The notes under the pieces: generated by a model
Told to the model about the DNA's origin: nothing
What the model saw: the letters and a program-made list of their open reading frames with translations, nothing else
Databases searched by the model: none
Program-made: the position numbers and the translations under genes
DNA from: Jimgerdemannia flammicorona
Lineage: Eukaryota
Length of the DNA: 51,052 nucleotides
Reading direction: 5' to 3'
Assembly (NCBI GenBank): GCA_003990765.1
Contig: RBNJ01000024.1
Coordinates: 1 to 51,052 of the forward strand
Shown: in pieces, positions 1 through 45,397 of the stretch
How positions within the stretch are numbered: position 1 is the stretch's first letter
Layout: every line of letters starts with the position of its first letter

Positions 1-822
1 AAACATCAAGAACTCTTCTATGAGTACAACACCTTTATTCCCTGCCTCCGAGTCACTACCAGCGAAATGGTTGCTACCTTATCCTATGGCCAAATCGATG
101 ACATGATACAAGAAATCAACCACAAGTACCTCGAATATGTCCAGACTACAGACAGAACCTTCCCGCACCCTGATGACCATATCCTGCAAATGCCTCAAGT
201 CGGATATACCATGAAGGATGTCTATGATATAATCCACTTCGACGAAGATGAAGCAGAAGACAATGATCTCTCTGACGCCGACATGACCTCTAGCCAAGGA
301 TCTCTGCCAACCCTGATCACTCTGCCAATCTTGCCGATGAACTTACAACAGTTCATAACTGCATACGAGACTTATTGGGACAATGACCACTGGCACAAAT
401 ACCAACCCGCATTCACCCCTGACTACTTCAACTACAATGAAGAGACCGGAGAACACAACCTATACCTCCAGACAACCCTCGAGATTGAACCAACCACTCC
501 ACCACCTGAGTATGAGCGACATGAACCACAGCTGCCAGCTTACTACAATCCTGCGACTCATAGTGCTGTAACCTATAGAAGATATGCAGACAGCGAATCT
601 GACGAAAGCGAAGACAATACACCCATCCTTCGCCCACCAACACCTTATCCAGCATACGAAACAGATGATGCTATCCTGTGGGATGGAGATGAAGTCCCAA
701 TGTATTACTACCTCAGCCAACAAGGAGAAGTAATCCGCGAACCACTCTTCCTAGATGACTACTTCATCAGAGATGATGCAATCGAGAGTGATGTCATCAA
801 GGACTACCCAGACAGCACCTAA
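1..822 (+). CDS. LTR-embedded (U3) ORF, acidic protein of unknown function; N-terminus outside the window
   Basis: The frame is open from base 1 to TAA at 822 (track ORF 67..822). The 3' LTR copy shows the full ORF from ATG 8324 to 9421. It lies upstream of the LTR TATA box. Confidence 0.7.
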   Translation, partial: KHQELFYEYNTFIPCLRVTTSEMVATLSYGQIDDMIQEINHKYLEYVQTTDRTFPHPDDHILQMPQVGYTMKDVYDIIHFDEDEAEDNDLSDADMTSSQGSLPTLITLPILPMNLQQFITAYETYWDNDHWHKYQPAFTPDYFNYNEETGEHNLYLQTTLEIEPTTPPPEYERHEPQLPAYYNPATHSAVTYRRYADSESDESEDNTPILRPPTPYPAYETDDAILWDGDEVPMYYYLSQQGEVIREPLFLDDYFIRDDAIESDVIKDYPDST

Positions 823-1011
823 ACCTATAAGTAGTCTAGCAGTCATAGTATAGATAGATTAGCCTTATATGATGTGACTGTGAACTGACTCAGCAGTCAG
901 ACAATCGCTTGACATGTCAGATCACACTTGTACTACATGACTGCATTCCGACTCAGCAAGGCACTTAGTACTACATCCATATCTAGCATAGTCCAGATAG
1001 CCCCTCACTAG

Positions 1012-1151
1012 TATAAATACCCCCTCCCCCAGACCTCAGAATCTCAGACTTGAAAGACTTGAACAATCCGAACACAACTTCTGAGCACTTCCCCACAATA
1101 TCTCTTCACACAAATACTCCTAGTATAGCAATATCATGAATAGCAAATAAA
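1012..1151 (+). promoter_or_regulatory. LTR TATA box (TATAAAT 1012-1018) and poly(A) signal (AATAAA 1146-1151)
   Basis: GTATAAATACCCC motif, duplicated at ~9610. The same motif occurs in the LTR of element 2 (minus strand, 14861-14873). Confidence 0.6.
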
Positions 1152-1513
1152 CCTATTCCATAACCCACAAACCACTCTTAAGTAAATCCGCTCCCTGTTA
1201 GGTCCTACTCCTAACCCCATCACGAAATTTCCTAATTGGGTATTGTCTGCAGCGATACGCCAATTCAACTAAGCTGGTCTTAGTTTCCTGAACTTCCTGA
1301 AATACGGAAAATTCTAAATATCCAGAACTAGTCCGAAAAAGGACTTTGGTTGAGACGTCAACCCGATCTTGAAATCAATAAGCATAGAGGATGTACTCCA
1401 TATGAAATTGATCTTGACCATAAAGAAAACGGTCTTCCAGCACATCTAGAATATCCAGAAAACCCTTCCAGAACTACGTAACGGTCACCCTAAAAAGTAA
1501 CCCTCTTACAACT

Positions 1514-1525
1514 TGGTAGCAGTGG
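1514..1525 (+). promoter_or_regulatory. Primer binding site (TGGTAGCAGTGG), probably initiator tRNA-Met
   Basis: Starts with TGG three bases after the LTR CA end and resembles the complement of tRNA-iMet 3' ends; tRNA identity is inferred. Confidence 0.7.
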
Positions 1526-2516
1526 TTTACAATCCAATTCCGCTTCAAGATGCTTCCTCACCCTGCTACAAACCCCTCTGCAAATTCCTACAAGTTGGTA
1601 TAAAGCCCAACCTCTGAACTGGAATTTATCCGAACCATCTGATAATCTGGAGAGAATTGAACCTGACATACAAGGACAATTTGACCTCCACACCTGCAAC
1701 AAGTGGGATAAACTTCATTCAAAGAAAGAAGTACTCAAGTTAAACCAGTAAATAGGTGAAACCCTATTCACCGAACTCCTTGCACTATATCCAGCAAGTC
1801 AAGATGAAGAAGGTCTTATTGAAGCCTTCTTTACTCTTCTCAATAAGAGTTTTGTCAGCTCCACAAATCCGAGTGACCTAGGACAACCAGCAGTGGTCTT
1901 TCTAGCCTTAGTTCCTCACGAAGCCCAAGCCCCTGTAGTCAAGTGGCTCAACTCTACTGACTTTCACCACACCAGGACCAAGACCGCCTTATACTACCGA
2001 TTCCAGAACAGCAAGGCCTGCCATATCCTCAAAGAAGAAGCAAGAGAAACCCTTCATCAACTACCTGACCTCAAACCTGAAGCAGGCCCTGCTACAACTC
2101 TACCTGAATCTGAAACCAATACCGAACCTGAACTTGACTTTGAATTAAGTCCATTTGAAATCAGATATACAACTGATTCTGTCTACTTTGACGCCGAGCA
2201 AACCCAATTACACGAGGACCAAACCGAAGAAGAGGAGGAGTATCTCACTGAATTCGATCCCGGATACACCACCGAAGGAGACACACACCCATCAGGACAG
2301 AATACACCTACACAGCAACAAACAGCTATCTATCAAGCCCTCACTCCAGATCCACAACTACTACTCCAGCAACTTACACAGACCCAAAGAACCCCATCAC
2401 ACTCTGCACCAGTACCTCAAGTAGTACCAGTAACACCACTACCAGCAGTCCAACCACCTCCAGTAAACAACATAGTGAACCAACAGATTCTAGACCTTAC
2501 AGCTCAAGTAGCTATA

Positions 2517-3470
2517 ATGGCAGCAACCATCACTGCCTTAGCTGAACAGACCCGACCTACCAAAAATCTGAGCCTACCTACCTTCAATGGCACTGCACAA
2601 GAAGTCTAAAGCTTTATTAGTATAGTTGACACCAACTTCGAAGCCAATCAATGGACTAATGAGCGAGTTGCTGACCACGTTCTGACAAACAATCAAGACC
2701 ACACCCTGGAACAACTCTTTGCTACAACTACAACTATAGCCTATGTCCACCAAGTTGTTACATTCTTCTGAGGACCTGCCGAAGAATGGTGGTGAACCCT
2801 TCCTGAAAAACCCCTCACATGGGATACCCGACCTGCAGTAGTTGCCCAGAATGCAGCAAACAATGCCCCAGGATATGGAGCCCATCCTGCAGCCCCTGGA
2901 CTCAAACAACTCATGATTGTTCAATATCGCAGTGAAACCATGATTGCTGAATCTCGAGTAAAACTCCGCAACCTCAAATTTGACATACATGGCAAAGAAG
3001 AATTCGAAACCTTCTGTACAAAACTCGAGTCACTCCTGAACACTGTTGGCCTAGGATACATTGCCAATGATGAAGCACAAAATGGTACAAGAGCAGACCA
3101 CTTATTCGATGCTCTGCCTGAATGGCTTACTAGAAAAATCCGAGAACAAGGCCACCCAGTTGGTTGTGATCACCAACAATGGTGCCTGGCAAGAATCAAG
3201 ACTATGGTCAAGCGAATCCTAACAGCTGGACCAATTCTGCCCCGAAGGCAATTCAATAACAAGGAAAGGACTTGGACTAAGAAAGAAAAACCCAAGCATG
3301 AAGCATCCTGAGCTCCCTCCACATCCACCTCTTGGACACCCAGAAATCATGAACCCACCCAGCCAGTACCTTCAAGAAACTTACTGAAGGCGAAAGGAAT
3401 GAACTTTGAAGAAGTGGAGCATGCTTCTATTGCCGAAAGACAGGACACATGACCAGTGCCTGCCCTAACT
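2517..3470 (+). pseudogene. gag: gag (capsid plus CCHC zinc knuckle), disrupted
   Basis: Retrotransposon capsid-like LPTFNG...EWW segment; CFYCRKTGHMTSAC knuckle at 3422-3463; internal stops and a frameshift. Confidence 0.8.
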
Positions 3471-3541
3471 AAAAACCCCAAACAGCAACCCGAGCAACGG
3501 TTACCACTCTGCATCACCTCAACAACCTGACCACCAGAACA

Positions 3542-3952
3542 CTAGACTTTGTAAAGTTAAGACAAACTGCTAAGGCCCCAACCAAAGGAAGTCAAAAGGC
3601 AGCTGGATATAACCTGTATGCAGCCGAAGAAGTTACAGTTTCCAACCGAGAAGTCAAACAAGTCTACACAGGAATTAGTATCCAAATTCCTGAAGGACAT
3701 ATTGGAAGAATATGCTGTCGCAGCAGCCTAGCACTGAAAGGACTCTCAGTAGAAGGAGGAGTCATTGATGAAGATTATACAGGCGAAATCATTGTCCTCA
3801 TCTGAAACCACAGTTGGACACCCTTCAAGATCCCTATTGGCTTCTGCATTGCCCAGATCCTATTTGAAAAAATCGAGTCAACCCTGACAGTCAAAGAAGT
3901 CTCTGAACTACTACCCACCATCCGAGGATCCAAAGGATTTGGCTCATCAAAC
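3542..3952 (+). pseudogene. dut: dUTPase domain between the zinc knuckle and protease
   Basis: Manual translation shows all five dUTPase motifs: AAGYNLYA, CRSSLA, GGVIDEDYTGEI, IAQILF, RGSKGFGSS. One TGA; same frame as pol. Confidence 0.92.
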
Positions 3953-4165
3953 AAAGCTACAGCTCAACCTACCATAAGCAAAGAAGAACAATTCTACAAG
4001 AAGATCGAAGATGGATATGTACCAAGTGGCTGATGCCCTCACGGTATTGGAATGTACTCTTCCCGAATAATTGATGATTGCTTCTCTTGTGTCAACGAAC
4101 TGGCTCAAAGAAGAACCAACAGAAGAAAGGCTCCTACAACTGAAATCACCACTATTGGATCAGAC

Positions 4166-7100
4166 AAACTGCTCACCCTTAAGGCTTTTGTCAATGGAGC
4201 ACCTGTCAAGATTATAATAGACAGTAGTGTCTCAGGCAACTTCATCAATGAGGAGACAGCCAACAGACTCAAGGTCTTCACCTCCCCAGTACAGCAAACT
4301 CAAGCAGTTGCTACAGCTGATGGAACCTCACATGTTATTAGCAAAGAAGTCTGCAATCTACCCTTCTGAATTGGCGACTACCGAGTACATGTTACCCTCC
4401 AAATCGTACCACTTCCTGACAATGAAATCATCCTTGGAACCCCATGGTTAAAACAAGAGAACCCCATGATCGATTGGGTAAACCACTCTCTGACCATTAA
4501 GAAAGGACGCCACAACTTCAAACTACAAGGCGAAAAGGACCTACTCAACTCTAGTGACCCTGGACCAAAGATCACCCACATCAACAAGCTATAACTCAAG
4601 AAATTGGCCAAGAAATGCCCTCTCTTTGCCATCTCCATCCGACCATCCAAAGGAGAACCCTAGAACTCTGAAGAAGATTTTTCCAAAGTTGACAGCCATG
4701 TCAGACCACTACTCCAGAAATTCCGAGACATATTCCCAAAGAAGCTCCTGAAAGGCCTACCTCCCAAACGAGCAGTAGACCATACAATCAAGACTATCCC
4801 AGATGCCAAACCAGCCTTCAAGTCAATCTACCACATGTCTCTAAGAGAAATTGATACACTCAAGAAAGAAATCGATGAACTTCTAGAACAAGGATTCATC
4901 AGACCTAGCATATCACCCTATGATGCACCAGTCCTCTTTGTTGTCAAGAAAGGAGGAGACCTACGAATGTGTATTGACTACCGTGATCTCAATGAACAGA
5001 CTATCAAGAACTGTTGCCCACTACCAAGAATCAATGAAATATTTGATAGACTTACCAACCCACAATTCATGAGCTCTTTTGACCTGCGAAATGGTTACTG
5101 GCAAATTGCCATGAAAGAAGAAGACATCTACAAGACAGCTTTCCAAACTCGCTATGGACACTTCGAGTTCCTGGTTATGCTCTTTGGCTTAACTAATGCT
5201 CCAGCAACCTTCCAGACACTGATGAATACCATTCTGCATCCATACCTGGACAAATTCGTTGTTGTCTACATTGACGACATCCTAGTCTTCAGCAAAACCC
5301 TAGAAGAACATCTTGAATACCTTGAACTAGTACTACTGAAACTCCGAGAAAACAGACTTTTTGCAAAACTCAGCAAGTGCGAATTTCTTCTGAAAGAAAT
5401 TCAATTCCTTGGACACATTGTCACCCCAAATGGAATCAAAGTGGACCCCAGTAAAATCTCTGCAATCAAGGATTGGCCCAGACCCAAGAAGCTGAAAGAC
5501 CTCCAGTCATTCCTGGGATTAGCAAACTATTACAGGCGATTTGTTGCCAACTTTGCTAAAATCGCTACCACCCTCACTCAAATGACCAAGCACAACAAGA
5601 AACAAGAACAACCCTGGACCATGAAACAAGAGAAAGACTTCAACAATCTTGTAAATTGGGGACCCGAACAAGATACTGCCTTTCAAGCGCTGAAAGATGC
5701 CCTGATAACCACACCAGTACTTCAAGCGGCAAATCCTGCCCTACTATATGAAGTCACCACTGATGCCTCTGACCTAGCTCTTGGAGCAGTACTCATGCAA
5801 GAAGGACACCCTGTGGCCTATCACTCCTGCAAGTTCAATGATGCCGAAATCAACTACACAACTCACGAAAAGGAAATGCTAGCCATCGTAAACACTCTGA
5901 TCAAATGGCGACTATATCTAGAAGAAGCACACTTCACTATATTGACTGACCACAAGTCATTAGTCAACATCAAGACACAGGCTACTCTTTCTCGAAAGCA
6001 AGCTAGATGGATGAAAGTTCTCACCAACTTTGACTACGAAATCCAGTACCACCCTGGCAAGGAAAATATTGTTGCCGATGCAATCTCCAGACTACCAATC
6101 GAAGAGGTTATCCAAACTCTGACCTTGGTTACCAACACTATCATGGAACAAATCATTGCAGCATATGTTGATGATAAAGAAGCTCAAGCACTCCGAGAAA
6201 TCCTGAACAATGATGATACCAACAAGCATACCCGGTACAATCAATACCAACTCAAGGACAATGCTATCTACTATAAGAACAGACTGTATGTCCCAAACAA
6301 CCGAGACCTCCGAAGGACTATCCTATTTGAATGTCATGATGCCCCTACAGCTGGACATTTAGGATTTGACAAATGTTACGAAGTTATCTCCCGAAACTTC
6401 TATTGGCCCCACATGGCAGATCAGCTCAAAACCTATATCACTTCCTGTGATGCCTGCTAACGAAACAAGTCCTCAACACTAGCAAAACCCGGCTTACTTC
6501 ACCCTATTCCAGTACCATCCGCAAATTGGGAACAAATCTCTATGGACTTCATTGTACAACTACCCTGAACCAAGAACGAGAAAGATGCAATTGTTGTCTT
6601 TGTGGACTATCTCAGCAAACAAGCCCACTTTGTGCCTACTACTACTACTGCAACAGCACCAGACATAGCCACACTCTTATTTGACAACATCTTCTGCTAT
6701 CATGGTCTTCCCAAGATCATTGTTAGTGACCGAGATCCGAAATTTACCAGCCACTTTTGGAAAGCCCTCCATGCATACCTTGGAACGAAACTCACACTAT
6801 CCACAGCCTTTTACCCTGAAACTGATGGCCAAACTGAAAGAATGAACCGAACTCTGGAACAAATACTAAGGAACTATGTCTCCTACAGACAAGATGATTG
6901 GCATGAACATCTCACTGCAGTCGAGTTTGCCTACAACAACAGCAAGCAAGCCTCTCTTGGAATGACCCCATTCTTCACTAATACTGGACAAAACCCAAAC
7001 ACCCCTTTGACACTTATCTGAACTACTGAAGAACCCTCTACAGTCGAAGCTGTTGAAGAATTCCTACTCCGAATGCGCAATCTAAGCCAGATCGCAATTG

Positions 7101-7609
7101 AGAATTTATCACGAGCTCAAGAACAACAGTCACAGTATATTAACCAACACTACCGAGAAGAAACCTTCGACATTGGAGAAAAAGTTCTACTGAACATCAG
7201 AGGATACCGAGTTGACAACCTCAAGTACAGACTATCTACAAAGCTGAACAGCAAGTTCATTGGACCATTCGAAGTCATTGCACAAGTCTCTCCAACCTCC
7301 TACAAACTGGCGCTACCAGATACCATTAAGATTCACCCAGTCTTTAATGTTTAACGTCTAAAGCGATACAATGACAATGATGATGAGCTATTTCCAAACC
7401 GAACCACCAAACCACCTACACCTGTCATCATTAATGACCAAGAAGAATACAAAGTTGAACAAATCCTCAACAAACATGGTAACAAGAACCATCCTGAGTA
7501 CCTTGTCAAATGGAAAGGTTACCTGATCCATGATGCAACCTGAGAACCCAAGACCAATCTTCAGAATGCTACTGACCTAGTTCAGGAATATGATTCTTTG
7601 AACAACTAG
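4166..7609 (+). pseudogene. pol: pol: protease, RT, RNase H, integrase, chromodomain
   Basis: Protease [25 protein letters not shown] and [52 protein letters not shown] and GPF; chromodomain EYKVEQIL...YLVKWKGY...T*EP at ~7442-7609. Confidence 0.96.
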
Positions 7610-8021
7610 AACCAAATACTCTGCACCTATCCATACATACTATATATTACCCTCCTGAACATTATAAACTATCATGAACCAAGTCAAGAACTCAGCAAAA
7701 CAAGACAAGAATACCGACCCTCTGGAAAAATAGCAAAACTGAAAGCAAGCCTATTCTCCCTGTACTACTGGTGGGAAACAAGGCATAGACATTTAAGAAG
7801 ATTCCTTAAGGGAAATTCTCCAGCAGTGAATGATGTCAGAATCACTTCCGGTGTATGGCATTGAACACACGACTCTTTAACGTGTGAATCCAACGCGTTA
7901 GGCAACTGTACTACGAGCATGCCACTTTCTAAGAAAATGGACCTTATCAGACTTTTGACCTCCCAAATGGTATAACAACACTAGAACAAATTAGAAGGCC
8001 CCAATGAGGACATTGAAAGCT

Positions 8022-8034
8022 AAGAAGGGGAGAG
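8022..8034 (+). promoter_or_regulatory. Polypurine tract
   Basis: AAGAAGGGGAGAG immediately before the TGTAAG start of the 3' LTR. Confidence 0.85.
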
Positions 8035-8035
8035 T

Positions 8036-10109
8036 TGTAAGCACACAACCTCCAAGCCACCAAAATTACATGTCACCCTCTGAACAAGCCACTGAAATCA
8101 CACACGACCTCCGAACAAATCTGGAAATCACCTGCTTGATCACAAAGCTGAGTCAAACTGAAGTCATAGTGCACAAAGCTGAGTCAATACAAAGTCACAG
8201 AACACAAGATCTACATAAACGGAACCTTACCAATTAGGACCAAATGCATATATACTGAGCACTGAGATGCGTCAAATCAGAGAACCAAAACAAACAACAA
8301 CCACAACTTCTAAACACACAAACATGACCACTGAGATCTACAACCGCATCCGTGCTGACATTTGGAATGCCATTGTCAACCGAGCCACACCCCCTCTACC
8401 CCTCATGAATATCCATAGCCTAGCACCCCTCTACTTCGTGGAAGCCTGATGGAATGCCCTGAACATGCTTAGTGAGGCCCACCGAATCGGACAAATCTCA
8501 AGCTACTACCAGATCGGCCACCTCCTAGAAGACATGATCGAACACCACCATAATACAGATATTACCCAGATGTCTCAACACCAGAAGCTCATCGCCTGCA
8601 AACATCGAGAACTCTTCTACGAGTACAACACCTTTATTCCCCGCCTCCGAGTCACTACCAGCGAAATGGTTGCTACCTTATCCTATGGCCAAATCGATGA
8701 CATGATATAAGAAATCAACTACAAGTACCTCGAATATGTCCAGACTACAGACAGAACCTTCCCGCACCCTGATGACCATATCCTACAAATGCCTCAAGTC
8801 AGATACGCCATGAAGGATGTCTATGATATAATCCACTTCGATGAAGACGAAGCAGAAGACAATGATCTCTCTGATGCCGACATGACCTCTAGCCAAGGAT
8901 CTCTGCCAACCCTGATCACTCCGCCAACCTTGCCAATGAACTTACAACAGTTCATAACTGCATACGAGACTTATTGGGACAATGACCACTGGCACGAATA
9001 CCAACCTGCATTCACTCCCGACTACTTCAACTACAATGAAGAGACCAGAGAACACAACCTGTACCTCCAGACAACCCTCGAGATTGAACCAACCACTCCA
9101 CCACCTGAGTACGAGTAACATGAACCACAGCCGCCAGCTTACTACAATCCTGCAACTCATAGTACTGTAACCTATAGAAGGTACGCAGACAGCGAATCCG
9201 ACGAAAGTGAAGACAATACACCCATCCTTCGCCCACCAATATCTTATCCAGCATACGAAACAGACGATGCTATCCTGTGGGATGGAGATGAAGTCCCAAT
9301 GTATTACTACCTCAGCCAACAAGGAGAAGTAATCCGTGAACCACTCTTCCTAGATGACTACTTCATCAGAGATGATGCAATCAAGAGTGATATCATCGAG
9401 GACTACCCAGACAGCACCTAAACCTATAAGTAGTCTAGCAGTCATAGTATAGATAGATTAGTCTTGTACGACATGACTGTGAACTGACTCAGCAGTCAGA
9501 CGATCGCTTGGCATGTCAGATCACACTTGTACTACGTGACTGCATTCCAACTCAACAAGGCACTTAGTGCTACATCCATATCTAGCATAGTCCAGATAGC
9601 CCCTCACTAGTATAAATACCCCCTCCCCCAGACCTCAGAATCTCAGACTTGAAAGACTTGAACAATCCGAACACAACTCCTGAGCACTTTTCCATAATAT
9701 CTCTTTACACAAATACTCCTAGTATAGCAATATCATGAATAGCAAATAAACCTATTCCATAACCCACAAACCACTCTTAAGTAAATCTGCTCCCTGTTAG
9801 GTCCTACTCCTAACCCCGTCACGAAATTTCCTAATTTGGTATTGTCTGCAGTGATACGCCAATTCAACTAAGCTGGTCTTAGTTTCCTGAACTTCCTGAA
9901 ATATGGAAAATCCTAAATATCCAGAACTAGTCCGAAAAAGGACTTTGGTTGAGACATCAACCCGATCTTGAAATCAATAAGCGTAGAGGACATACTCCAT
10001 ACGAAATTGATCTTGACCATAAAGAAAACGGTCTTCTAGCACATCCAGAATATCCAGAAAACCCTTCCAGAACTACATAATGGTCACTCTAAAAAGTAAC
10101 CCTCTTACA
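8036..10109 (+). repeat. 3' LTR of element 1 (2074 bp)
   Basis: TGTAAG...CTTACA inverted termini, preceded by the PPT; matches the 5' LTR. Confidence 0.95.
8324..9421 (+). pseudogene. 3' LTR copy of the U3-embedded ORF (365 codons, three premature stops)
   Basis: Track ORFs 8267, 8465 and 8789 share one frame. The stops at 8708 (TAA) and 9116 (TAA) are CAA and CGA in the 5' LTR; TGA 8447 is plausibly from CGA. Confidence 0.75.
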
Positions 10110-11950
10110 CTATTGCAATGTGGTGGAAGGGGATAGGCTCAATTCTTGATGACCTGGGTGCCTGGTCTTGCTGATCTTGTTTCTGTTTTTGGTACTTATT
10201 ATATCCTTTGACAAATTGGCACAGGTCTTCTTCCATCTTGGGCCACTATATAGTTCTTCTTACTTTGTCATATATATTAGTTTCTCCTAAGTATCCTTGC
10301 TCATGTACTTCCTTCATTACTTGATACTTCTTATATTTGGGTATTACTAGCTTTTCTCCTTTTCTGAGTGTAGTGTTATCTAGTTCAAACTGTTTTCAAG
10401 TCCAGTTGATAATAGAGATTGTCCAGAGTTTGAGGTGGTTGGGCATCTTCCACTGCCCAAAGTAGCTGATTAATCCATAGTATAGCTCTTTATTCATATT
10501 GAATAGTCTTGATAGAGGTGTTTCGGGGCATCCTTGAGAGTGTATCGGCATTGGTATTGGTCTTTCCTGAGTGGTGCTTAACAGTACAGTCATACTCTTA
10601 CAGCCTGTAGATTCATCTGGCATATATTTCTTTGAGGTTTAGAGTGTAGAATAGCTAGACAAGAGTGGAGTGGTCTGTTTGAATAGTGAAGTATTTTCTG
10701 GCTAGATAGTAGTGGAACTTGTCTACTGCCCAAAATACTGCTAACATTCAAGCTTGCATAACTTGTAGTTCTGTTCTACTCCATGGGTACCTTGGCTTGT
10801 ATAGGAGATGACATATTCATGTCCATCTTTCTTCTGAGCTAGGACTGCTCTAAGTCCTATAGCACTCGCATCTGTCTACAGGATGAATTCTAGGTTCCAG
10901 TCTGGTCTTCTGAGGATAGGTGCTTGGGTCAACCTGATCTTGAGTTCATTGAAGGTTTCTTGGTACTCCTTGGTCCATTCGAATTTGGTTTCCTTCTTCA
11001 GTAGCTTGTAGATAGGTGCTGCAATATTGGAGTATCCTTTGATGAACCTTCTGTAGTAGCTGGCCAGTCCAAGGAAGGCATAGACTTCTGTAGTTGTTCT
11101 GGGTCTTGAGTAGGCTGCAACAGCCTCAATCTTCATGAGGTCTGTGTGAATTCTGATCTGGTTGATGAGGTGTCCTAGATAGGTGATTTCTTGAGCTGCA
11201 AACTTGTATTTATTGGGCTTGATGTAGAGGCCATGCTCCTTGAGCTTCTTGAGGGCTAGCTGTATGTAATTGACATGTTCCCATATAGTGTTACTGAAGA
11301 TGATCATATCATTAATATAGACAAAGAGCTATTTTCCAATCTCATTGCTGAAGACTCTGTTCATCATTTGCTGGAAACTTGCTGGGGCATTGCACATTCC
11401 AAATGGCATTCACAGGTAGATATAGGTGGCATCAGATATGATGAAGGCTAATTTCTCACTAGCATCTTGAGTGAGACCAATCTGATAGAAGCCTGAGAAC
11501 AGATCTAAGGTGGTGTAGTATTTGGCTTTGCTTCTAAGGATGGTAAGGATTTCTTGAATATTTGGCAAGAGCTGCCTATCCTTCTTGGTGATGGCATTGA
11601 GCTTTCTGTAGTCAATGCAGAGTCTTGATGCAAACTCTCCAGATTTGCTTTCTTTCTTTAGGACAAGGACAATGGGTGAGTCCCAGAGGCTGATAGCTTG
11701 CTTAATGATTCCAGCTTCTTCCATTTCCTTGAGTTCTACTTGCAGCCACTCTCTGTAGGCAGGTGGTATGGGTCTGGCTTTCTGGTAGATGGGCTTGGTA
11801 TCACCAGTGTCAACTTCGTGGTAGTACTTGGGTTCTTGATTGTGGATATTCCTGAAGTCTGTAGCAAGTACTTCTTCATTCTGATGCAGGATCTTGAGAA
11901 GTTGTTCTTCCAGGGGAAAGTTTTCTCCAATAGTGTATGTATGCTTGTTC
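10110..11950 (-). pseudogene. pol: pol of element 2: RT, RNase H, start of integrase
   Basis: ORFs 11410..12102, 10876..11307 and 10396..10623 carry RT/RH motifs (FLGLASYYRRFI, APILRRPDW); many stops. Confidence 0.9.
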
Positions 11951-12009
11951 TGGTCCTTGTCTTTCTTGTGCTCAAGTTCAGTAATCTTGGTGGCAGCATA
12001 GACTCTTCT

Positions 12010-12425
12010 TCTAGTAGATCCAAAGCCTTGTTCTCCTCTCTTGATCTTGATGAGTTTGATGGCTTCTATGATCTTGGGCTTCTTGACTTTGTGAATCAGC
12101 ATCTGGCTAATCCTATCATGCTTCTTGACTTCAAATGGAGTGGTGGGGTTGTGATTCCTAATTATGAGAAAGATCTCACCAGTGTAATCAGGGTCAATTA
12201 CTCCTTCTTTAACTGAGATTTCGCTTTTGGCCAGACTGCTCCTAGTCTTGATAATTCTAGCATAGTTCTCTGGTAACTTGACTCCAATTCCAGTGCCAAG
12301 TAGGGTGGTGGTCTATGGTTTGAGGGTAGTATCTTGAATGCTGGCAAGATCCATTTCTATGACTCCTTCAGTCTTGTATTCTGGAATCTTGGCTTTGGGG
12401 TGAAACTTCTTAACCTTGAGAGTGA
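12010..12425 (-). pseudogene. dut: dUTPase domain between protease and RT
   Basis: LKVKKFHPKAKIP...MDLAS...RSSLAK...GVIDPDYTGEI...RISQML...RGEQGFGST. Confidence 0.9.
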
Positions 12426-12779
12426 TGTCTGATTCTTGTTCCTCCTCATAATTACTGTCAGCTTGAAGCTCTGGGGGCTGGTCATCTTCTTTGGCTTTTC
12501 TTTTTGCTTCAGTAACTTCTTGCTCATGTTTCTGTTGGCAGATTTTCCTGACTTCACTGATACAGGACCAGCAGTCATTCAGGTGTTCAGAGCAGTACAT
12601 CCTAGTACTATGGGGGCATCTTTCCTAAGAAGCATAGTCATTGATGATCTTGTTGTACCACTGCTCATCTGTGAGCTTGGGTGTCTTGTTCTTGTTCTTG
12701 TTCATCAAGTACATGAAGACCTCTGTGTCCTCTTCATCTCCTTCCTCCATGTCTGGTAGAACTCCTTTGTGGACATTGA

Positions 12780-14513
12780 TAGAGACTCATACCTTTCTCT
12801 CTCTATAGTTGATCTGTATCTTCTGGGCATTGAGGTCAATGATGACCTTGGCCTTGTGAAGCCATTGGTTGCCAATGAGGATGTCATAGTTGGTGGTACT
12901 TGTAACAATCACATCTACTAGGATAGTAGCTCCTCTTATCTTAATGGGGACTTCTCAGATTTTGCCAAGAGGGATAGCTCGTATACCATCTGCTGTAATA
13001 TAGACCATTTTGGTGGACTCTTCAACATCCCAACCTAGGCAGTCAATTGTCTTCTTGCTTATGAGGCATCCTCCAGCACTGGTATCAATGATAGCATCAA
13101 AGATACAGTCTTCAATCTGACATGGGGTATAGGCTGATGTCTTGTGCTGGTCTTCAGATTTTTCATCTGAGTTCTCAGATTCTTCCTGTACATTGTGAGC
13201 TTCTACAATCTTGTACTCTTGATTCTTAGCAGTAGTTACAAGTTCTACTCTCAACTACTGTCTAAAGGCAGGGACTTCGGCTAGTTGTCCAAAAGTGGCA
13301 TTAATCTTCTGTTCCTTGAGGTTCTTGTAGATATCATACTGGTGGATCTTGGTCTTGCACAGCTTCTGTTCCTTCTTGCTTTCACTTTCTCCTGAGACTG
13401 AAGTAGTGCCTTCAATGATTTGGCAGGCAGCTTCATTTAACTCCATGTCTTGATCAATCTTCTCTGGTTGAGTCTTGCTTTGAATAGTGATAGCTGGGGT
13501 CTTCTTTGGTCTTCCAACTGGCTTGCTGTTGCTCTTCTTGTCATAGGGCTTGGACTGGGTTCTGGTACCTTCAGTAGCAGGGTAGAATTCAAGCTCCTCA
13601 TAGTATTCTTCATCATCAGTATCACCAATCTCCTCAATGACTACTGTATTGGTTTGTTCTCTAGTTCTGCTAGCATTGCTTAATTGGGCTTTGCATCTTG
13701 TTTTGGTCATGCAATTCTTTGCATAGTGGCCTTCTTCTCTACATCTGAAGCATGTGATATTGTATTCTTCTATAGTGGCTGCAAATCTCTGTACTGGTCT
13801 CCTGTTGACACTTCAGACTTCTCTAACAATATCACCAGATGTACAGTCATCTTAGCAAACTGCTTGGTAAGTTCTTCTACTGGGTCAGCTTTGGCTGTCT
13901 TGGGGGTAAGTGGGGTTGGTTGTCTGTTTACAACTGTGGCAGATATGATACTAGTTAGCTTTGATGGCTCCATCTTGATGCCAGTTATTTTCTCCATTGA
14001 GTGTTTGGCAGAGTATCTGGCAGTCCAATATCTCTGTACAAAGACCACTTTCTGATCAAGGGTCAGTATAGCTAGGGTAGACTGAATTGCTAGGGCAATT
14101 TTAGAGTGAACTCCTTTAAGGAAGATTGAATCTGCTATTTGTTCCTTGAGGTGGTCATCATAGCCAGCCAAGACAATTTGGTGGCAGATTCGGGTATAGA
14201 ATAAGTTGGAATCTTCACTAAGTCCCTGGTAGATAGTATTGAGTTGATCCTTAAGAGCTTGCTTGATCTCTTCAGTATAGTATGTTGTTCTGAGGAAGGC
14301 CTTCATGTTGGCAAGTTTGGCTGTACTAGTATCAGTAATAGTGACTGCATTGAACTTGTCTCTGGCAGATCCTCTGAGGCTGACTAGTAGAAGGGCCAAT
14401 TGTACATCCACACTAAGGGCTCATATGGTGGCAAATTGTTCAAAGTCTTCAATAAAGGTCAGGATTGACTCTTCAGTAGTATATCCATAGAATATGGGGG
14501 GATGCATTTCCAT
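12780..14513 (-). pseudogene. gag: gag plus protease of element 2
   Basis: MEMHPPIFYG start; capsid-like ORF 13770..14411; zinc knuckle at ~13711-13756; aspartic protease-like AIIDTSAGGCLIS. Confidence 0.8.
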
Positions 14514-21648: not shown

Positions 21649-23501
21649 ATGGACACATTGCAGTTGCGCGGAACTCTCGTAGGTGTGTGGAATCATTTTC
21701 TAAAGAGATTAATAGATGAATAATGGATGGATAATGGATGGATGGATGCAAATATTAACAGTTGGTTCCTGGAGTTGGATGGATATATTTCGTGAATGAG
21801 GATTCGTTAATGTAGGTCAAGGGTAGGAGGGCACTAATCACTAATCTCAGATACCTACTCATTCTTCTCATTGCCTATTGAACAACGTAGGTCATCGTGG
21901 TTGGGTCACGGCTATCGCCACATCCTCCGAAGCCCCTGATATGGTCTTGTCTGCCTCTCGTGGTATGTGACGTCAGGTGCTACCACCGCTTGAGCCCGTT
22001 TGCGAAACTAGCGATCAGCAAGCGAGTAAATTCCTTCGCACACCACTTTGGGCGGGAGATTTTTCCGGGTTTACTAGAACGCATGATTGCAAATCATGGT
22101 TTAAGGTTTCCTTATACCAGTCTGACAAGAACAAATTTTAACATATCCTACTTGTGTCTTTGTTCCAACACCCTTTCATGTCATCTTGGTCACTGTTAGA
22201 CAAGTCCATCATCGTTTGGCAGTTGACTAGGTATCCATCTCACTAAACATATTCTAGGTCCTCTTTTGGCTTATGAAGCGAAGCTGCCATAAGTTCATGT
22301 GATTGTTCTCCTGCTCCCAGTGGGACAGGGAGCTCACGATTGCCCTATTGGTTTTGGTATTAGGGATGAAACGAACTATGGCTTGCCACGCAAAGCCCTT
22401 CTCGGCCACAATCACTTTGTTCAAGACGTGGTAATCTCCTCGGATGGCCAGTTCGCCCTATCTGCCTCTTGGGACAAGACTTTACGCCTCTGGGACCTGC
22501 ACAACGGCACCACGACCCGTCGCTTCGTAGGCCACACCAACGATGTTCTCTCGGTCTCGTTTTCTGCTGATAACCGCCAGATCGTCTCCGCCTCCCGCGA
22601 CAAAACCATCAAGTTGTGGAACACCCTCGGTGAATGCAAGTACAACATTCAGGAGGATGGACATACTGAATGGGTCTCGTGTGTCCGATTTTCACCGAAC
22701 CCGGCCAACCCCGTCATCGTATCCGGAGGATGGGACAAGGTTGTCAAGGTATGAATAGCTCGACCATTCTGACTGAGGCCAATTTCATGAATGATGTCAC
22801 GAAATATATTTGCTACTTCAGAGCAGGATTAGATTCTTGCTATGAGACAAATTTCCACATTTACTGACATGACTGAACATTTAACTCATTGCGTTGGCAT
22901 ACATATTTTGCATACGTTACTGTTACTACATCATTAACAACGGCTTCCAAATCTTGCATTTTTGTACGTAGGTCTGGGAACTTACGAAATGCAAGCTCCG
23001 TACGAACCACATTGGGCACACTGGCTACATTAACACTGTTACCGTTTCGCCTGATGGTTCTCTGTGCGCCTCTGGTGGCAAGGATGGCATCGTGATGTTG
23101 TGGGATCTCAATGAAGGCAAGCACTTGTATTCCCTCGAGGCTGGGGATATCGTCAACGCCCTAGTTTTCTCCCCCAACCGCTACTGGTTGTGCGCCGCTA
23201 CCGCTGCCGGCATTAAGATCTGGGATCTTGAGTCCAAGTCGATTGTCGATGAACTCCGGTAGGCACATGAATTTCTTTCATTTTCTAGTAGAATACCGGA
23301 GAAGATATCGGATATTTGCTCCAATTCAAAAATCATTACTCATTACTCTTACTCCACCATAGCCCCGAGTTCCTTGATAAAGGGAAGCGGTCCGCCGATC
23401 CTCAGTGCGTTTCTCTTGCCTGGTCTGCGGACGGCACGACCTTGTTCTCTGGTTACACGGACAACCTCATTCGCGTGTGGCAGGTTACCCGTTCTCTCTA
23501 G
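21649..23501 (+). CDS. cpc2: RACK1/Asc1/Cpc2 WD40 ribosomal scaffold protein; exons 21649-21682, 21891-21962, 22200-22230, 22364-22748, 22972-23258, 23363-23501
   Basis: Spliced translation [21 protein letters not shown]...[32 protein letters not shown]...[12 protein letters not shown]...SLAWSADG; all introns GT-AG. Confidence 0.97.
22785..22872 (+). ncRNA. snR24: Box C/D snoRNA, U24/snR24 family, in RACK1 intron 4
   Basis: Terminal stem TCATG/CATGA; C box ATGATGT 22791; guide ATATTTGCTACTT plus D' CAGA, matching yeast snR24 as I recall it; C'-like ATGAGA; D box CTGA 22864. ASC1/cpc2 introns are the known host. Confidence 0.85.
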
Positions 23502-37490: not shown

Positions 37491-38303
37491 TTCCAACATC
37501 AATATCAAATGTTCACTTTGTCTGATTTTGTTATAGCATGCCCTATATATATTTTTTATAAGTATATTAAAGTTATATATTATAATTAAATATTAATAAT
37601 AACTAAATATTATTATCATTTTAACTATTACTATAGTTATATTAAGTTTGATATCTCTATTTGAGATATTTTAAATAATTAACTATAAAATAAAAAGATC
37701 AGATCTTATACAATTGATAATAAAAGTACTTTTATTTTTAATATATTATTATTCAAAATAAAGTATACACATCAAAAACCTACAGCTGATATAAGAATAT
37801 GAACAAGAACAGGATCAGAGACATACAATTGTCAAAAAAGAACTTGGGAGATCGTCCTTTGGACATTGCTTGATGGAGCCTTTGTTCTTGCATAAGCAGG
37901 ATCCATGCAGAAGATGGTAACTTTTACATAACAATGCTTAGTAATACCTATTATTGATGTACTACAATCCACCCGATCACAGTAATCTGGAAGCTCAACC
38001 ATAACGAGACACAATTAAAAATGAAATAAAAAAAAATCTCGCCCTTCACTTGAATTCATATCATTGTCCATTTACAAGAAAGGAAGATGAAAAAGGCGCT
38101 GTGACTCCGAGTAATATATAAACTGGTGGTTTGAAGGAGGGAGGAGAACAGGGGCTAAAAAAAATAACACCCCAGCGTGCAAAAAAGGAAAATACTGAAA
38201 AAATAGCATTACATATTAACGCATTCCCTCGGGACACCTTAAAGCGAAAACGCTCTGGATAAACCAGAAAACTAATTGTACCTACACCGAAGCACAACAT
38301 ACT

Positions 38304-40306
38304 CTAGCCGTCAGTTGTCGTAATGGAATTCGATGTATGGGGCAAAATAATCGGTACGGAAACCGTGCTATCTTTGGAGTCAACACCGTCGGCGCTTACG
38401 AGATTCTGGACAGTATCTCGAAGGGCACTTTTACTGTCTCCTTTTTCACCATCAACTGCATCGCTCAGATCGCCCGAAGTCGAAGTGATCCCGTTGCCCG
38501 TCACATGTTTTGATCCCAACTCCCGGTTGCTATCAGTGAGGAAGTTGCCTAGACGATCCGTCGCACTACTTTGTAGCAACTTTTTGGTAATGTTATCATA
38601 CCACTGCTGTTTCGTCAGATTGTTCAGCAAGCCGACAATGACAACGGTCATGTTATCGCAGCCAATACCACCAATCTCGCTGTCGGGAGCAAGGCACCGG
38701 TCCATCAATTCTTCACATATGACTTTGAGCGACTTCTTGTCAGCGATGCCAACGCGCACAAAGTCTACCACCTCCTGCGAGGTCATGCAATCCCAGATAC
38801 CTAATGGAAAATGGAAACGGTAAGGATTCATGTAACTGGCGTGATTGGCATATTGACGTAAAAGAATACAGACCATCGCAGGCTATTACAATGAACTCTT
38901 CATCTTCACCCAATTTATGCTCAATAATATCAGGATTCGCTAAGGAGAGTAATTGGTTCAAAGATATTGTTCCCAACAAGCGGTTAGAGAGAGGGACAAA
39001 AATGTCGAAATCAAGACCCCAGAATACGTCAACAACAAATTTAGCGTACAGGTGACAATCTGGTGCTCTGGGCTCAGGTTGAAGTTTTGTTTGAATTCGA
39101 AATCTCCGATAGCACGAGATAGCGCGAGGTTCCCTTTATATATATTTGAGCATTACGATGGGTTGTTCGTTTTAGTCATGGCTCGTAATGATATTCCCCG
39201 TTGAAATGACCGAGATAAAAGCTAAACTTACCGTTGACACGGCCAAACTCAACAAACCCCCCAGCAGCTACAATTCTTTGTGACTCGGCCTTATTCACAG
39301 GTTTATGATCATGGGAAAGCGCCTCAACTTTGCCGTTGACACTGATTACAGCACGAGAGTCACCGGCGTTGCCCTGATAATGGAGAAGTAACAGAGCAGA
39401 CACATAAACTTTCTCGCGTATCCTAGGTTTCTTCAATCGATCATTTCAATATAAAAACTATAGGATATTCACCACAAGTACACGTTTGCCAGGTTCGATG
39501 ATGGCGGCAACAGCAGTGCAACCAGATGGATCGTGTGCGAACTCCGGATCTTATATGGGATGCATGCCAAAAAATTCGAATAACAGAGTTCGAGTAATCC
39601 CAAATGATTAAAATACATCCTCCGTGTGTTTCTATCGCTGATTAAAGGAGTCGAAATTGCACTGGTGTCCTTACCTTGTTTCAAATCAGCGTCCGTGCCC
39701 AGGAACCCATTCTTGATAGCCACATGATATTTTCCCTCCTTAAAAGCGTCTTCAGCGGCGATACGTTTGTGAAGCTGATTTCCGCTGTATTTAGCGACAT
39801 TTTGGCCTATGAGAAACGAAGCACCCCAAGGATAAGCTATCGTATCCAAACTACCGGCCTGTCTTAACGTTTTGCTCATCTGCGAGCACAATACGATAAT
39901 CGGTAAACCAATATAAACACTATACGCAGAATCCCCATTTCTGGTACTTACCGCCATGGCCATCGTACACGGCGAAAAATGCAACGTTCGATCCGTCTAA
40001 CTTCAAAATAGTTGTGTGGGCGTCTTCCATACCTGCAGAGTTCGGGTGGAATGATGTTAAGGACACAACAAAGCAAAACATGGTGGGTATATTCACGGGA
40101 GTCGCTCCATTTGACCAAGAGAGGTAGTATCCTCGTGTTTGCCAGAATCAGTGGCGATCTTTGTTTTGGCCCGCAACGCCACACACAGAGGTCAAAAGGA
40201 TACTGACACGCCATCCTTGCATGGAGGAGGCAGCATAGATCAAACGGTCATCGCCATCCTCAGTAGAATGCTTCTCAATGACAGGCTCTGATAGCGTCTG
40301 ACCCAT
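38304..40306 (-). CDS. PTC2: Protein phosphatase 2C, PTC2/PTC3 family (multi-exon)
   Basis: MGQTLSEPV start; [56 protein letters not shown] introns. Confidence 0.93.
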
Positions 40307-40515
40307 TGTACGGCTTGTTAAAAAAAAAAAATGTGGGAGAGGGAGAGAGAGCTCAGCAAGGGTCTAGGGGGTAAGTATGCGCCCACGGACCAGCGTGACC
40401 TAGACTGTTGCCCAATCAAATGGCACCAGCTTGAATCCGTTGTGTGTGATGCATGATGTCACACCCACACACAGCCGTCTTTGTTATTTTTGCTATCCTT
40501 CAAGCCTCGGTCGCC

Positions 40516-43351
<2,836 letters not shown>

Positions 43352-43755
43352 ATTGGCATGTGAGGCAGATATCAATCCTAGTGCACTTTCTGCAAATAAA
43401 TCAAAGTGTGGAGCTCGCTAGATGTCCGATGCCGTTTTGGCTGAGGCACTGGTTGGCACTACTCCTTTCGACCCGATTCGTCGTTTTTAATGTACTGTGC
43501 TTGAACAGCGAACATCGGATTGGACTTAATAGACAATCGATCCTCAAAGATCACTTGCTTTGTACAAATCAGGGTGCAATTCGAATATCATGTACATTCG
43601 AGTGCTGAACGAAGGCGCTACAGCTCTTCCCAGGCGTTTTGGATGCACAGATAACACGTTTATATCGACCCTAGTACACCCAATCCCGTGCTTGTATTAG
43701 AAAAGAGGGGGTTTTCCTTTCGACAATTGCTACATGATTTATTCCAAAGCTGGTT

Positions 43756-45202
43756 TTAGAAGATGATTTGTGAGGCATCAAACAACATAGACACACTTTC
43801 TCCATGATGAATCCTCCGAATTGCCTCGGCGAAAATTGGGGCGATATTGAATACACGAATCTTGCTGCACCGACGTAGATGATCGTCTTGTGGTATGGAA
43901 TTAGACACAACAATCTCATTTATTCTCGACTTCTCGATCCGCTCGTCGGCGTCACCAGAGAGGATGGCGTGCGTGATTATGGCGAGGATACGCGTTGCAC
44001 CGTTTTCGTGCAAGACTTTGGCGGCTTTGGTGATTGTGAAGGACGTATCAGCGATATCGTCAATCAGAATACAAACTTTGCCGCGAACATCGCCCACCAG
44101 CATGAGATCCTGTTTGTATGGCTGTGCTGTGTGCCGGCGCTCCTTGTGAATCAGTGCAAAGTCCATGGAAAGTTTGTCGGCGATTGCTGTGGCTCTTTAA
44201 ACATGCATTCAGAGATCAACCACAGGAGACATTATTAATGGGACCCATGGAGTAATCGTTGCCAAATCATTACGACATGGAACCCACCTCTTGGCACCAC
44301 CAGCGTCTGGTGAAACAATGACTGCATCTTCGTAGTTGGCGATGTTTTCCTTGATATATTTCACCATCAGCGGCATAGAGAACAAATTATCGACGGGGCA
44401 ATCAAAAAAGCCTTGAAATTGCGGATCATGTAAGTCCATAGTAATAATTTGGTCAGCACCTATTCAAAAATAAAATTGGAATGAATCAAATTATGTGATA
44501 TGTAAGGTATGCAGCGGAAGAATGTCGCCTGGAATTATGAAACAGAAATCAAGTACCTGCACATGTCAGAAGCTCAGCAACCAAAGTACCAGACCTAGCA
44601 ACCCATTGCTTATAACCTCCTGCGTTGATTCCCGTCCCGAAACCTCCATTACCGGCGACGCTTGGCGTCACGAGGCCAGACTGCGATGTGCGATAGAGCT
44701 TCTGAATCTGCGCCGCAAGCTCGTCGACAGATGTAGCCTCTGAAACAGCCTGCGGAACTGGTGTGCTCGCGCCCGACTGACTTGGGCTATGGACAGCCGA
44801 GTTGAAATTGGAAAAGGGGTTTCCACCGCCAAGTCCTGAAGGGGTGACCGTTCCAGTCATGGGGGGTGCCCTCGTCAAAGGGGCGCCCGAGCGTTTGTGC
44901 GGAGCGTCCGGTTGGCGTGAGTATGGAAAGAAAGGTATGACAGCAGTAACTTTTTTGGCCGAGGCCGTTTTGCAAGCTTGCAACATGACGAGTAGTTCCA
45001 TGAAGTTGTTGTTGACGTGGCCACAGCCAGACTGAATGATGTACACGTCCATGTCGCGGACTGACTCTTGGATTTGGACGCTGGTTTCATTATTAGAGAA
45101 TTTTGAAAGGGTTGCCTTGCCTGGCTGAATACCAAGGCGTGCGCAAATTTGGTCGGCTAGCTGGGGGTGGGAAGAGCCTCCGAAGATGACAATGCCTCTC
45201 AT
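43756..45202 (-). CDS. PRS5: Ribose-phosphate pyrophosphokinase, PRS5-like with low-complexity insertion (3 exons)
   Basis: [53 protein letters not shown]; Ser/Pro/Gly-rich insert after YSRQ. Paralog assignment is less certain than the family. Confidence 0.88.
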
Positions 45203-45397
45203 GGTAGCGAAAGTCAAAAGCTTTTGGACAGGTCATGGGCTTTTGAAGGTGAAATTTTTTCCGTAACGTCATCACCGTTCGACGATCACTCTGTCCCCGC
45301 CACCATTGCCCCACTGCCACCCCATGCCTACACCATTACTGCTCTATATTACAGTACTAGTGATATTTTCTCCCAAAGAACACTGCAGACAGATCTT

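Follow-up and report, generated by a model that had tools for sequence, protein, structure and literature searches.

The window analysed here comprises positions 1 to 51,052 (forward strand) of contig RBNJ01000024.1 from Jimgerdemannia flammicorona (assembly GCA_003990765.1). Its left 10.1 kb is a chromodomain Ty3/Gypsy retrotransposon (chromovirus) on the + strand; it is assigned to the chromoviruses because of its pair of long terminal repeats (LTRs), the order protease–reverse transcriptase–RNase H–integrase and a PF00385 chromodomain. The subject of this report is a long open reading frame (ORF) located in the LTR itself, referred to below as the LTR ORF.

An open reading frame within the LTR

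The features that define the LTR ORF and its position are as follows.

8267..9421, + strand: LTR ORF, 3′ copy; in-frame ATGs at 8267 and 8324, TAA at 9419-9421; stops TGA 8447, TAA 8708 and TAA 9116
1..822, + strand: LTR ORF, 5′ copy; last 273 codons and TAA 820-822, no internal stops
1..1510, + strand: 5′ LTR, truncated by the window start; counterpart of 8600-10109 in the 3′ LTR
8036..10109, + strand: 3′ LTR, 2074 bp, TGTAAG...CTTACA; TG at 8036, CA at 10109
8022..8034, + strand: polypurine tract AAGAAGGGGAGAG, read from the sequence, directly 5′ of the 3′ LTR
9611..9618, + strand: TATAAATA, presumed core promoter at the end of the unique 3′ region (U3), read from the sequence, 190 bases 3′ of the ORF stop

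From ATG 8324 to the TAA at 9419-9421 the ORF has 365 codons. Upstream, the frame stays open back to 8219, and starting at the in-frame ATG 8267, 19 codons 5′ of ATG 8324, would give 384 residues. The 5′ copy is visible from codon 93; all of its 273 codons (1-819) are open, and it ends at the same TAA as the 3′ copy. At the two stops of the 3′ copy that can be compared with the 5′ copy, the differences are transitions only (8708 C/T; 9116-9117 CG/TA), while TGA 8447 corresponds to R in another family copy, the protein P0003 described below. A previous sequence-only reading of this DNA had placed a 365-codon ORF (8324-9421) in the U3 of a 2.07 kb LTR, and had described the 5′ copy as free of stops over its 273 visible codons and two of the three stops in the 3′ copy as C>T-type changes; each of these statements holds.

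Judged by its position, the ORF appears to fall entirely within U3, with the LTR start (8036) on one side and TATAAATA on the other; the U3/R border is itself placed by inference. The ORF is separate from pol, which ends near 7610 with the chromodomain: the polypurine tract lies in between, the ~400 bases after pol contain stops in all three frames read, and the ORF frame has many stops from ~7610 to 8218. Nor is it an internal additional ORF (aORF) of the kind found in other elements: it begins 233–290 bases past the polypurine tract, and the 5′ LTR contains a second copy of its final 273 codons. On the strand opposite the ORF there are two open frames, one of 126 codons at 8942-9322 and one of 87 codons at 460-723 (− strand); they are probably a by-product of the ORF codon bias.

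The two LTRs (1-1510 versus 8600-10109) align without gaps at 95.4% identity, differing at 70 of 1510 positions. Pairing is demonstrable only from 8600 on, because the window does not reach back to the start of the 5′ LTR. The ends of the 3′ LTR are TG and CA within a 6-base inverted repeat, TGTAAG...CTTACA. Its start at 8036 was placed by the polypurine tract and the TG, together with breakpoints of metagenome contigs: contigs from public runs depart from the window sequence just before 8036 and just after 10109, and the summed contig depth climbs at 7982-8078 in two DNA runs, in agreement with this start.

Coding signature and relatives

Chance occurrence of the frame was assessed with 1000 dinucleotide-preserving shuffles; the 273-codon open run of the 5′ copy was longer than any run in the shuffled sequences (maximum 203). 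The base composition by codon position (positions 1/2/3) is G 27/11/13% and C 26/24/41% in the ORF, and it mirrors that of the element's reverse transcriptase frame (G 27/11/13%, C 24/20/31%).

Two relatives of the predicted protein were found. P0001 is a 247-residue metagenomic protein from a 998-base contig, which aligns to ORF residues 115-365 with 165 identical (66.8%) and 207 positive (83.8%) of 247 columns; the only gaps are a pair of in-frame ones, each two residues long, and the position of the stop is shared. P0003 (128 residues, 1180-base contig) is 92% identical to residues 1-128 and starts at the same MTTEIYN. Both are singletons, each on a metagenome contig of ~1 kb. An exhaustive HMMER search of 1.84 billion representatives, with a profile of columns 93-365 that left out residues 1-92, returned these two proteins only; P0001 is therefore not a lucky survivor among many fragments. 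Among 5.8 billion clustered proteins P0001 was the single relative of similar length, and word-based searches that included longer and shorter proteins found no relative beyond P0001 and P0003. At the DNA level, a search of metagenome contigs for relatives of the ORF matched 339 pattern stretches, with no relatives among them, and no match was obtained with a degenerate pattern for the conserved YQPAFTPDYFNYNE block.

To model divergence without selection, the window's own codons were evolved to the amino-acid identity of P0001 under six mutation models. Only 42 of 3000 runs in one set and 20 of 1800 in another ended with an intact frame. None attained the observed 0.838 of positive columns; the maxima were 0.80–0.83 (0 of 1800 counted at or above the observed value). 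The ORF thus seems to have been under purifying selection across at least two diverged lineages. Selection appears evident for the C-terminal two thirds of the ORF only; the N-terminal 114 residues are without diverged support because P0001 begins at the residue matching M115. Taken together, the composition shared with the reverse transcriptase frame, the open homologue at 67% identity and the failure of neutral simulations to reproduce it argue, as the sequence-only reading had proposed, against a chance frame, and we consider with good confidence that the LTR ORF is a real gene kept by selection.

The encoded protein is predicted to be soluble: no transmembrane-like segment was found (maximum 19-residue hydropathy 0.97). 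Its N-terminal third is near neutral (as are residues 1-128 as a whole) and may be helical; the other 250 residues have a strongly acidic character, with many aromatics and prolines; for residues 93-365 the isoelectric point is 4.1, with 55 D+E versus 13 K+R, 37 aromatic residues and 24 prolines. Acidic, aromatic-rich composition is typical of acidic activation domains. The blocks conserved with P0001 are aromatic-rich (FPHPDDHILQMPQV, LQQFIT.YETYW, YQPAFTPDYFNYNE, HNLYLQTT, PPTPYPAY and EPLF.D.YFIRDD). Among the motifs pointed out earlier from the sequence alone, the PTPYPAY block is kept in P0001 and PPPEY is not, reading PLSEY there. Helices in the N-terminal half, also suspected earlier, are indeed drawn by AlphaFold2, in models that carry no weight: the predicted local distance difference test score is 33.2 for the 273-residue piece alone and 33.0 for the 365 residues with a three-row alignment, which makes the models unusable.

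A Pfam scan of the protein matched no family at E ≤ 1 or E ≤ 10. Sequence searches of the PDB gave best values of only E ≥ 0.24, with no significant relative. In the ESM Atlas there was no usable match for residues 93-365 and only weak look-alikes for P0003 (at most 155 shared features, versus 170 typical of true family members), and no similarity to the element's own gag region was found. On balance we favour the explanation that the U3 of this chromodomain Ty3/Gypsy family carries a genuine, selected protein-coding gene of no known family.

It may be asked if the selection acted elsewhere. A host gene or lineage-restricted orphan gene could have been captured by transduction into an ancestral U3; P0001 would then be the cellular donor or its orthologue, the constraint would be cellular and the LTR copy would have no role. 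Such an origin fits P0001 lying on a 998-base contig with its surroundings out of view and starting at M115, like a shorter stand-alone gene. It also fits the stop at codon 129 in many family copies, and a relative of the ORF in another context. The latter comes from public run X12, guessed to be RNA, where a contig of 9601 bases (depth 369) has ~210 bases ~81% like 9021-9230 followed by thousands of bases unlike the LTR; this diverged relative may be expressed. A captured gene, however, should have orthologues, yet the search of 1.84 billion representatives yielded only P0001 and P0003. The check for a recently captured host gene suggested by the sequence-only reading likewise showed, for the profile of residues 93-365, no cellular relative pointing to a conserved host gene. 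Moreover, the codon-position composition is that of the element's own pol, the shared stop position and in-frame gaps hold in the element's 5′ copy too, and short contigs are usual for repeats in metagenome assemblies. We consider capture unlikely.

The element, its candidate regulatory motifs and its decay

The remaining parts of the element are listed here.

1514..1525, + strand: primer-binding-site-like TGGTAGCAGTGG, read from the sequence, 3 bases past the end of the 5′ LTR
1893..3311, + strand: gag region, assigned by position only; broken frames, no Pfam match
4052..4369, + strand: aspartic protease (PF13975, PF13650)
4835..6460, + strand: reverse transcriptase, RNase H and integrase zinc finger (PF00078, PF17917, PF17919, PF17921)
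6602..7354, + strand: integrase core and Tf2-1-type SH3, with a stop inside; PF24626 above the cut-off, PF00665 (23 bits) below it
7355..7540, + strand: chromodomain at the C-terminal end of pol (PF00385, 31.5 bits, cut-off 25.1)

The Pfam matches for protease, reverse transcriptase, RNase H and integrase follow each other in this order across 4052-7354, and the gag-pol frames are broken in the window copy. The window contains no tRNA gene with which the primer-binding site TGGTAGCAGTGG could be matched. The family is present in high copy number: 4234, 483, 462 and 302 contig pieces with 80–100% likeness were retrieved from four runs. Most runs that contain the LTR are labelled soil metagenome.

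The 3′ flank at 10110-10300 is repetitive, with many contigs from runs X1 and X2, some of which have different sequence before 10112; the element thus seems to be inserted into another repeat. A second, unrelated Gypsy-type element occupies 10876-14420 (− strand), with a dUTPase directly upstream of the reverse transcriptase, a protease and a CCHC zinc knuckle; no LTR pair was found for it in the window. A dUTPase beside the reverse transcriptase is a trait described from Gypsy elements of basidiomycetes and of Tuber (PMC2864245); like the soil labels of the runs, it agrees with a probable fungal host. Host-gene exons follow to the right of the transposons, with WD40 repeats, a PP2C phosphatase, a weak FAD-oxidase match and a ribose-phosphate pyrophosphokinase. 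These exons and a non-LTR-type reverse transcriptase frame, which extends past the window end, are found among 22293-22754 (+), 38304-38882 (−), 41988-42371 (+), 43756-45232 (−) and 48520-51052 (−). A direct repeat of 185 bases with 70% identity occurs at 48704 and 50502.

Within the 3′ LTR, the following motifs may be regulatory.

8141..8202, + strand: tandem 31-base repeat with one TGAGTCA per unit (8149, 8180); candidate upstream activating sites
8249..8254, + strand: TATA-like TATATA, read from the sequence, 70 bases 5′ of ATG 8324; putative function
9485..9491, + strand: TGACTCA, 120 bases 5′ of the main TATA box
9745..9750, + strand: AATAAA, candidate polyadenylation (poly(A)) signal in R, read from the sequence

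TGAGTCA is presumably an AP-1/Gcn4-type site. Three of the seven distinct TGAGTCA/TGACTCA sites of the 51 kb window are inside the 2 kb LTR, an enrichment noted post hoc. The region 8041-8226 is structurally variable among family members; enhancer regions of retroviral U3s are likewise variable.

None of the runs containing the LTR is on record as RNA. Two small runs that are guessed to be RNA, each from a different study, had a summed contig cover of 12–23 before the TATA box and of 1073 and 225 after it (bin 9631-9727), a rise put at about 100-fold, versus only a roughly twofold change across the same parts in two DNA runs. In X12 and X14, the guessed-RNA runs, R-U5 (9631-10115) had 20 to more than 100 times the contig cover of U3, which could reflect the start of the element RNA or abundant short LTR transcripts. 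The jump after the TATA box agrees with an ORF located in U3, as a weak hint, since contigs cannot establish RNA starts or levels. By the same token, the low contig cover over the ORF in these two runs is uninformative on its expression. One contig has adapter-like letters directly before 9672. No joint between leader and ORF was listed for the stretch compared, which took in the leader only as far as the primer-binding site.

A different placement of the main promoter would move the ORF out of U3. If transcription started from 8141-8254 and TATAAATA were a second or chance site, the ORF would lie in a long R/5′ leader as the first cistron of the genomic RNA. Plant Ogre elements have an ORF1 as first cistron in such a leader-type position. 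The promoter-like module just 5′ of the ORF (the tandem TGAGTCA repeat and TATATA) would suit this arrangement, and in that transcript ATG 8324 would come first or second among the AUGs. The arrangement would, however, need an R of ~1.5 kb and bypass of the 9745 poly(A) signal in the 5′ LTR. The guessed-RNA cover also hints weakly against it, with 4–24 (X12, one foreign contig excepted) and 2–77 (X14) over the ORF as compared with 1000–7900 (X12) and 220–1500 (X14) from 9631 on. A leader position is, in our view, very unlikely, and we return to a gene within U3.

The copy in the window is dead. Of the 70 differences between its LTRs, 69 are transitions and 40 fall on CpG sites; ~35–39% of CpG sites differ between the LTR copies versus 3–6% of other C/G sites. 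The CpG observed/expected ratio is 0.37 in the element interior (1511-8035), 0.58 in the LTR and 0.94 in the genic stretch 38000-46000. Cytosine methylation directed at transposons would account for this pattern better than classical CpA-biased repeat-induced point mutation. A naive ratio of nonsynonymous to synonymous differences (pN/pS) of 0.24 between the LTR copies, considered as a sign of constraint, was rejected: the signal was gone once the CpG-transition spectrum was modelled. Among the 12 of 22 indels listed for family members, at least two lie in the ORF, on one contig, with the frame restored within a codon; they were not counted as evidence.

Several observations weigh against a selected U3 gene. 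The longest open run of the 3′ copy, 135 codons, was matched or beaten in 80 of 1000 shuffles. Comparison of the LTR copies shows similar rates of change in the ORF and in the non-coding LTR, both at CpG sites (27/78 versus 17/44) and at other C/G sites (11/320 versus 15/252). The synonymous shares fit the mutation spectrum (15/27 versus 0.42 expected, p=0.18; 4/11 versus 0.34 expected, p=1.0). Such neutral decay is expected after insertion and is uninformative on the active lineage.

The stop at 8708 (codon 129) is not private to the window copy: C makes up only about half of the summed depth in soil run X1 (268.6 of 516.9), and nearly all reads in X2, X12 and X14. P0003 ends exactly before codon 129. 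The stop is either a recurrent change or the mark of a subfamily that spread with a broken ORF. As many members carry a broken ORF, the gene is not needed in cis and, if functional, acts in trans.

The relatives amount to two proteins on ~1 kb contigs, and a place of P0001 in an LTR or retrotransposon is not implied. Residues 1-114 are backed only by P0003, which at 92% identity appears too similar to reveal selection. The protein has no family, fold or motif that links it to any function. Finally, the putative promoter module is an interpretation of short motifs, and the window-wide count of TGAGTCA is at chance level (8 found versus 10.2 expected).

The possibility that the frame is a relic or product of chance, with no present or recent coding function and kept open by composition and the youth of the family, accommodates the neutral decay of the window copy, the unexceptional run of its 3′ ORF, the lack of a known domain and the very low-confidence models; still, it is highly improbable given a 5′ run that beat 1000 of 1000 shuffles, codon periodicity in frame and a fully open homologue at 33% divergence whose conservative replacements are unlike the neutral simulation.

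A putative U3 gene and its counterparts

A selected gene in U3 would need its own messenger RNA (mRNA), because the genomic RNA contains U3 only at its 3′ end. By the more likely route, the ORF would be driven by a second promoter within the LTR's first 290 bases (the two 31-base repeats and the TATA-like box), and the mRNA would end at the poly(A) signal that the LTR itself carries near 9745. Each LTR would then be a complete gene unit, like the P2-driven sag/naf ORF of mouse mammary tumour virus (MMTV). The existence of such a promoter is put forward tentatively, as a possibility that we find somewhat doubtful. The less likely route would be a spliced subgenomic mRNA from the main promoter.

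As for function, the protein might be a trans-acting helper, either a transcriptional activator working through its acidic-aromatic half or a factor that counters silencing. The activator role is speculative and rather unlikely. In its most far-reaching form, the proposal would make each 2 kb LTR a self-contained cassette of promoter, 365-codon ORF and poly(A) signal, whose acidic activator or counter-silencer acts in trans to boost the whole family; as a whole, this version too is rather improbable. Were it true, there would be two copies of the gene per insertion, and one would be retained per solo LTR. The retrotransposon would then possess an equivalent of the regulatory genes of complex retroviruses, of independent origin in a fungal chromovirus.

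The closest parallel in position is found in MMTV. Sag of MMTV is a membrane glycoprotein, whereas the LTR ORF protein has no membrane-anchor-like segment. Nor was homology to Sag found (nothing in Pfam at E ≤ 10, nothing significant in the PDB), and MMTV is a mammalian betaretrovirus as opposed to a chromodomain Ty3/Gypsy retrotransposon without env. The Sag and Naf proteins of MMTV are products of a U3 ORF under the control of the U3 promoter P2 (PMC9412291). The two systems are alike in having an ORF of a few hundred codons wholly within U3, thus in both LTRs, and would also share a second U3 promoter, which the repeat and TATA-like module suggest for the LTR ORF.

Other accessory genes resemble the LTR ORF in part. 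CERV of the C. elegans Gypsy/Ty3 element Cer1 is described as a lineage-restricted accessory protein encoded 3′ of pol, expressed from a spliced subgenomic mRNA and acting in trans on the element's RNA (PMC10309623). The likeness, as far as that description goes, is an accessory protein 3′ of pol in Ty3/Gypsy with homologues confined to a narrow group (PMC10309623); the LTR ORF differs in lying after the polypurine tract, inside the LTR, and no sequence similarity was found. Plant LTR retrotransposons have aORFs and env-like ORFs, described as extra Ty3/Gypsy ORFs whose function is not known and which are often family-specific (PMC7264820). Those seen are internal; a phrase search of that source gave no LTR-located ORF (PMC7264820).

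The 3′ accessory genes of complex retroviruses differ from the LTR ORF in that their overlap with U3 is only partial, and the Pfam scan, as far as it goes, shows no sequence relation. Genes of this kind are nef of human and simian immunodeficiency viruses and bet/bel2 of foamy viruses, which partly overlap U3 of the 3′ LTR and whose mRNAs are multiply spliced or come from an internal promoter. Among fungi, the brtn gene is reportedly antisense, to judge from the title of the paper on it; it would thus be internal and antisense, in contrast to a sense ORF in the LTR. It is an additional ORF of the Gypsy element Boty/BcGypsy1 of Botrytis cinerea (bioRxiv 10.1101/2021.04.13.439636).

In searches of the open-access literature no ORF was found described inside the LTR of a retrotransposon, the one match of this kind being the retrovirus MMTV; a report in a subscription journal is possible. 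Accessory Ty3/Gypsy ORFs, internal in every case consulted, and retroviral U3 ORFs are already known; what appears new is the sag-like position of a gene in a fungal-type chromovirus with an unrelated protein of no known family.

Fungal LTR retrotransposons are usually taken to encode gag and pol only, with LTRs as short non-coding promoters; the LTRs of crapaud, for example, are given as 339–443 bp (PMC10787394). If the selected U3 gene is real, some LTRs, solo LTRs included, would be gene carriers, and a class of proteins would escape annotation by pipelines that mask LTRs. It would also mean that regulatory accessory genes like those of complex retroviruses can arise in simple retrotransposons.

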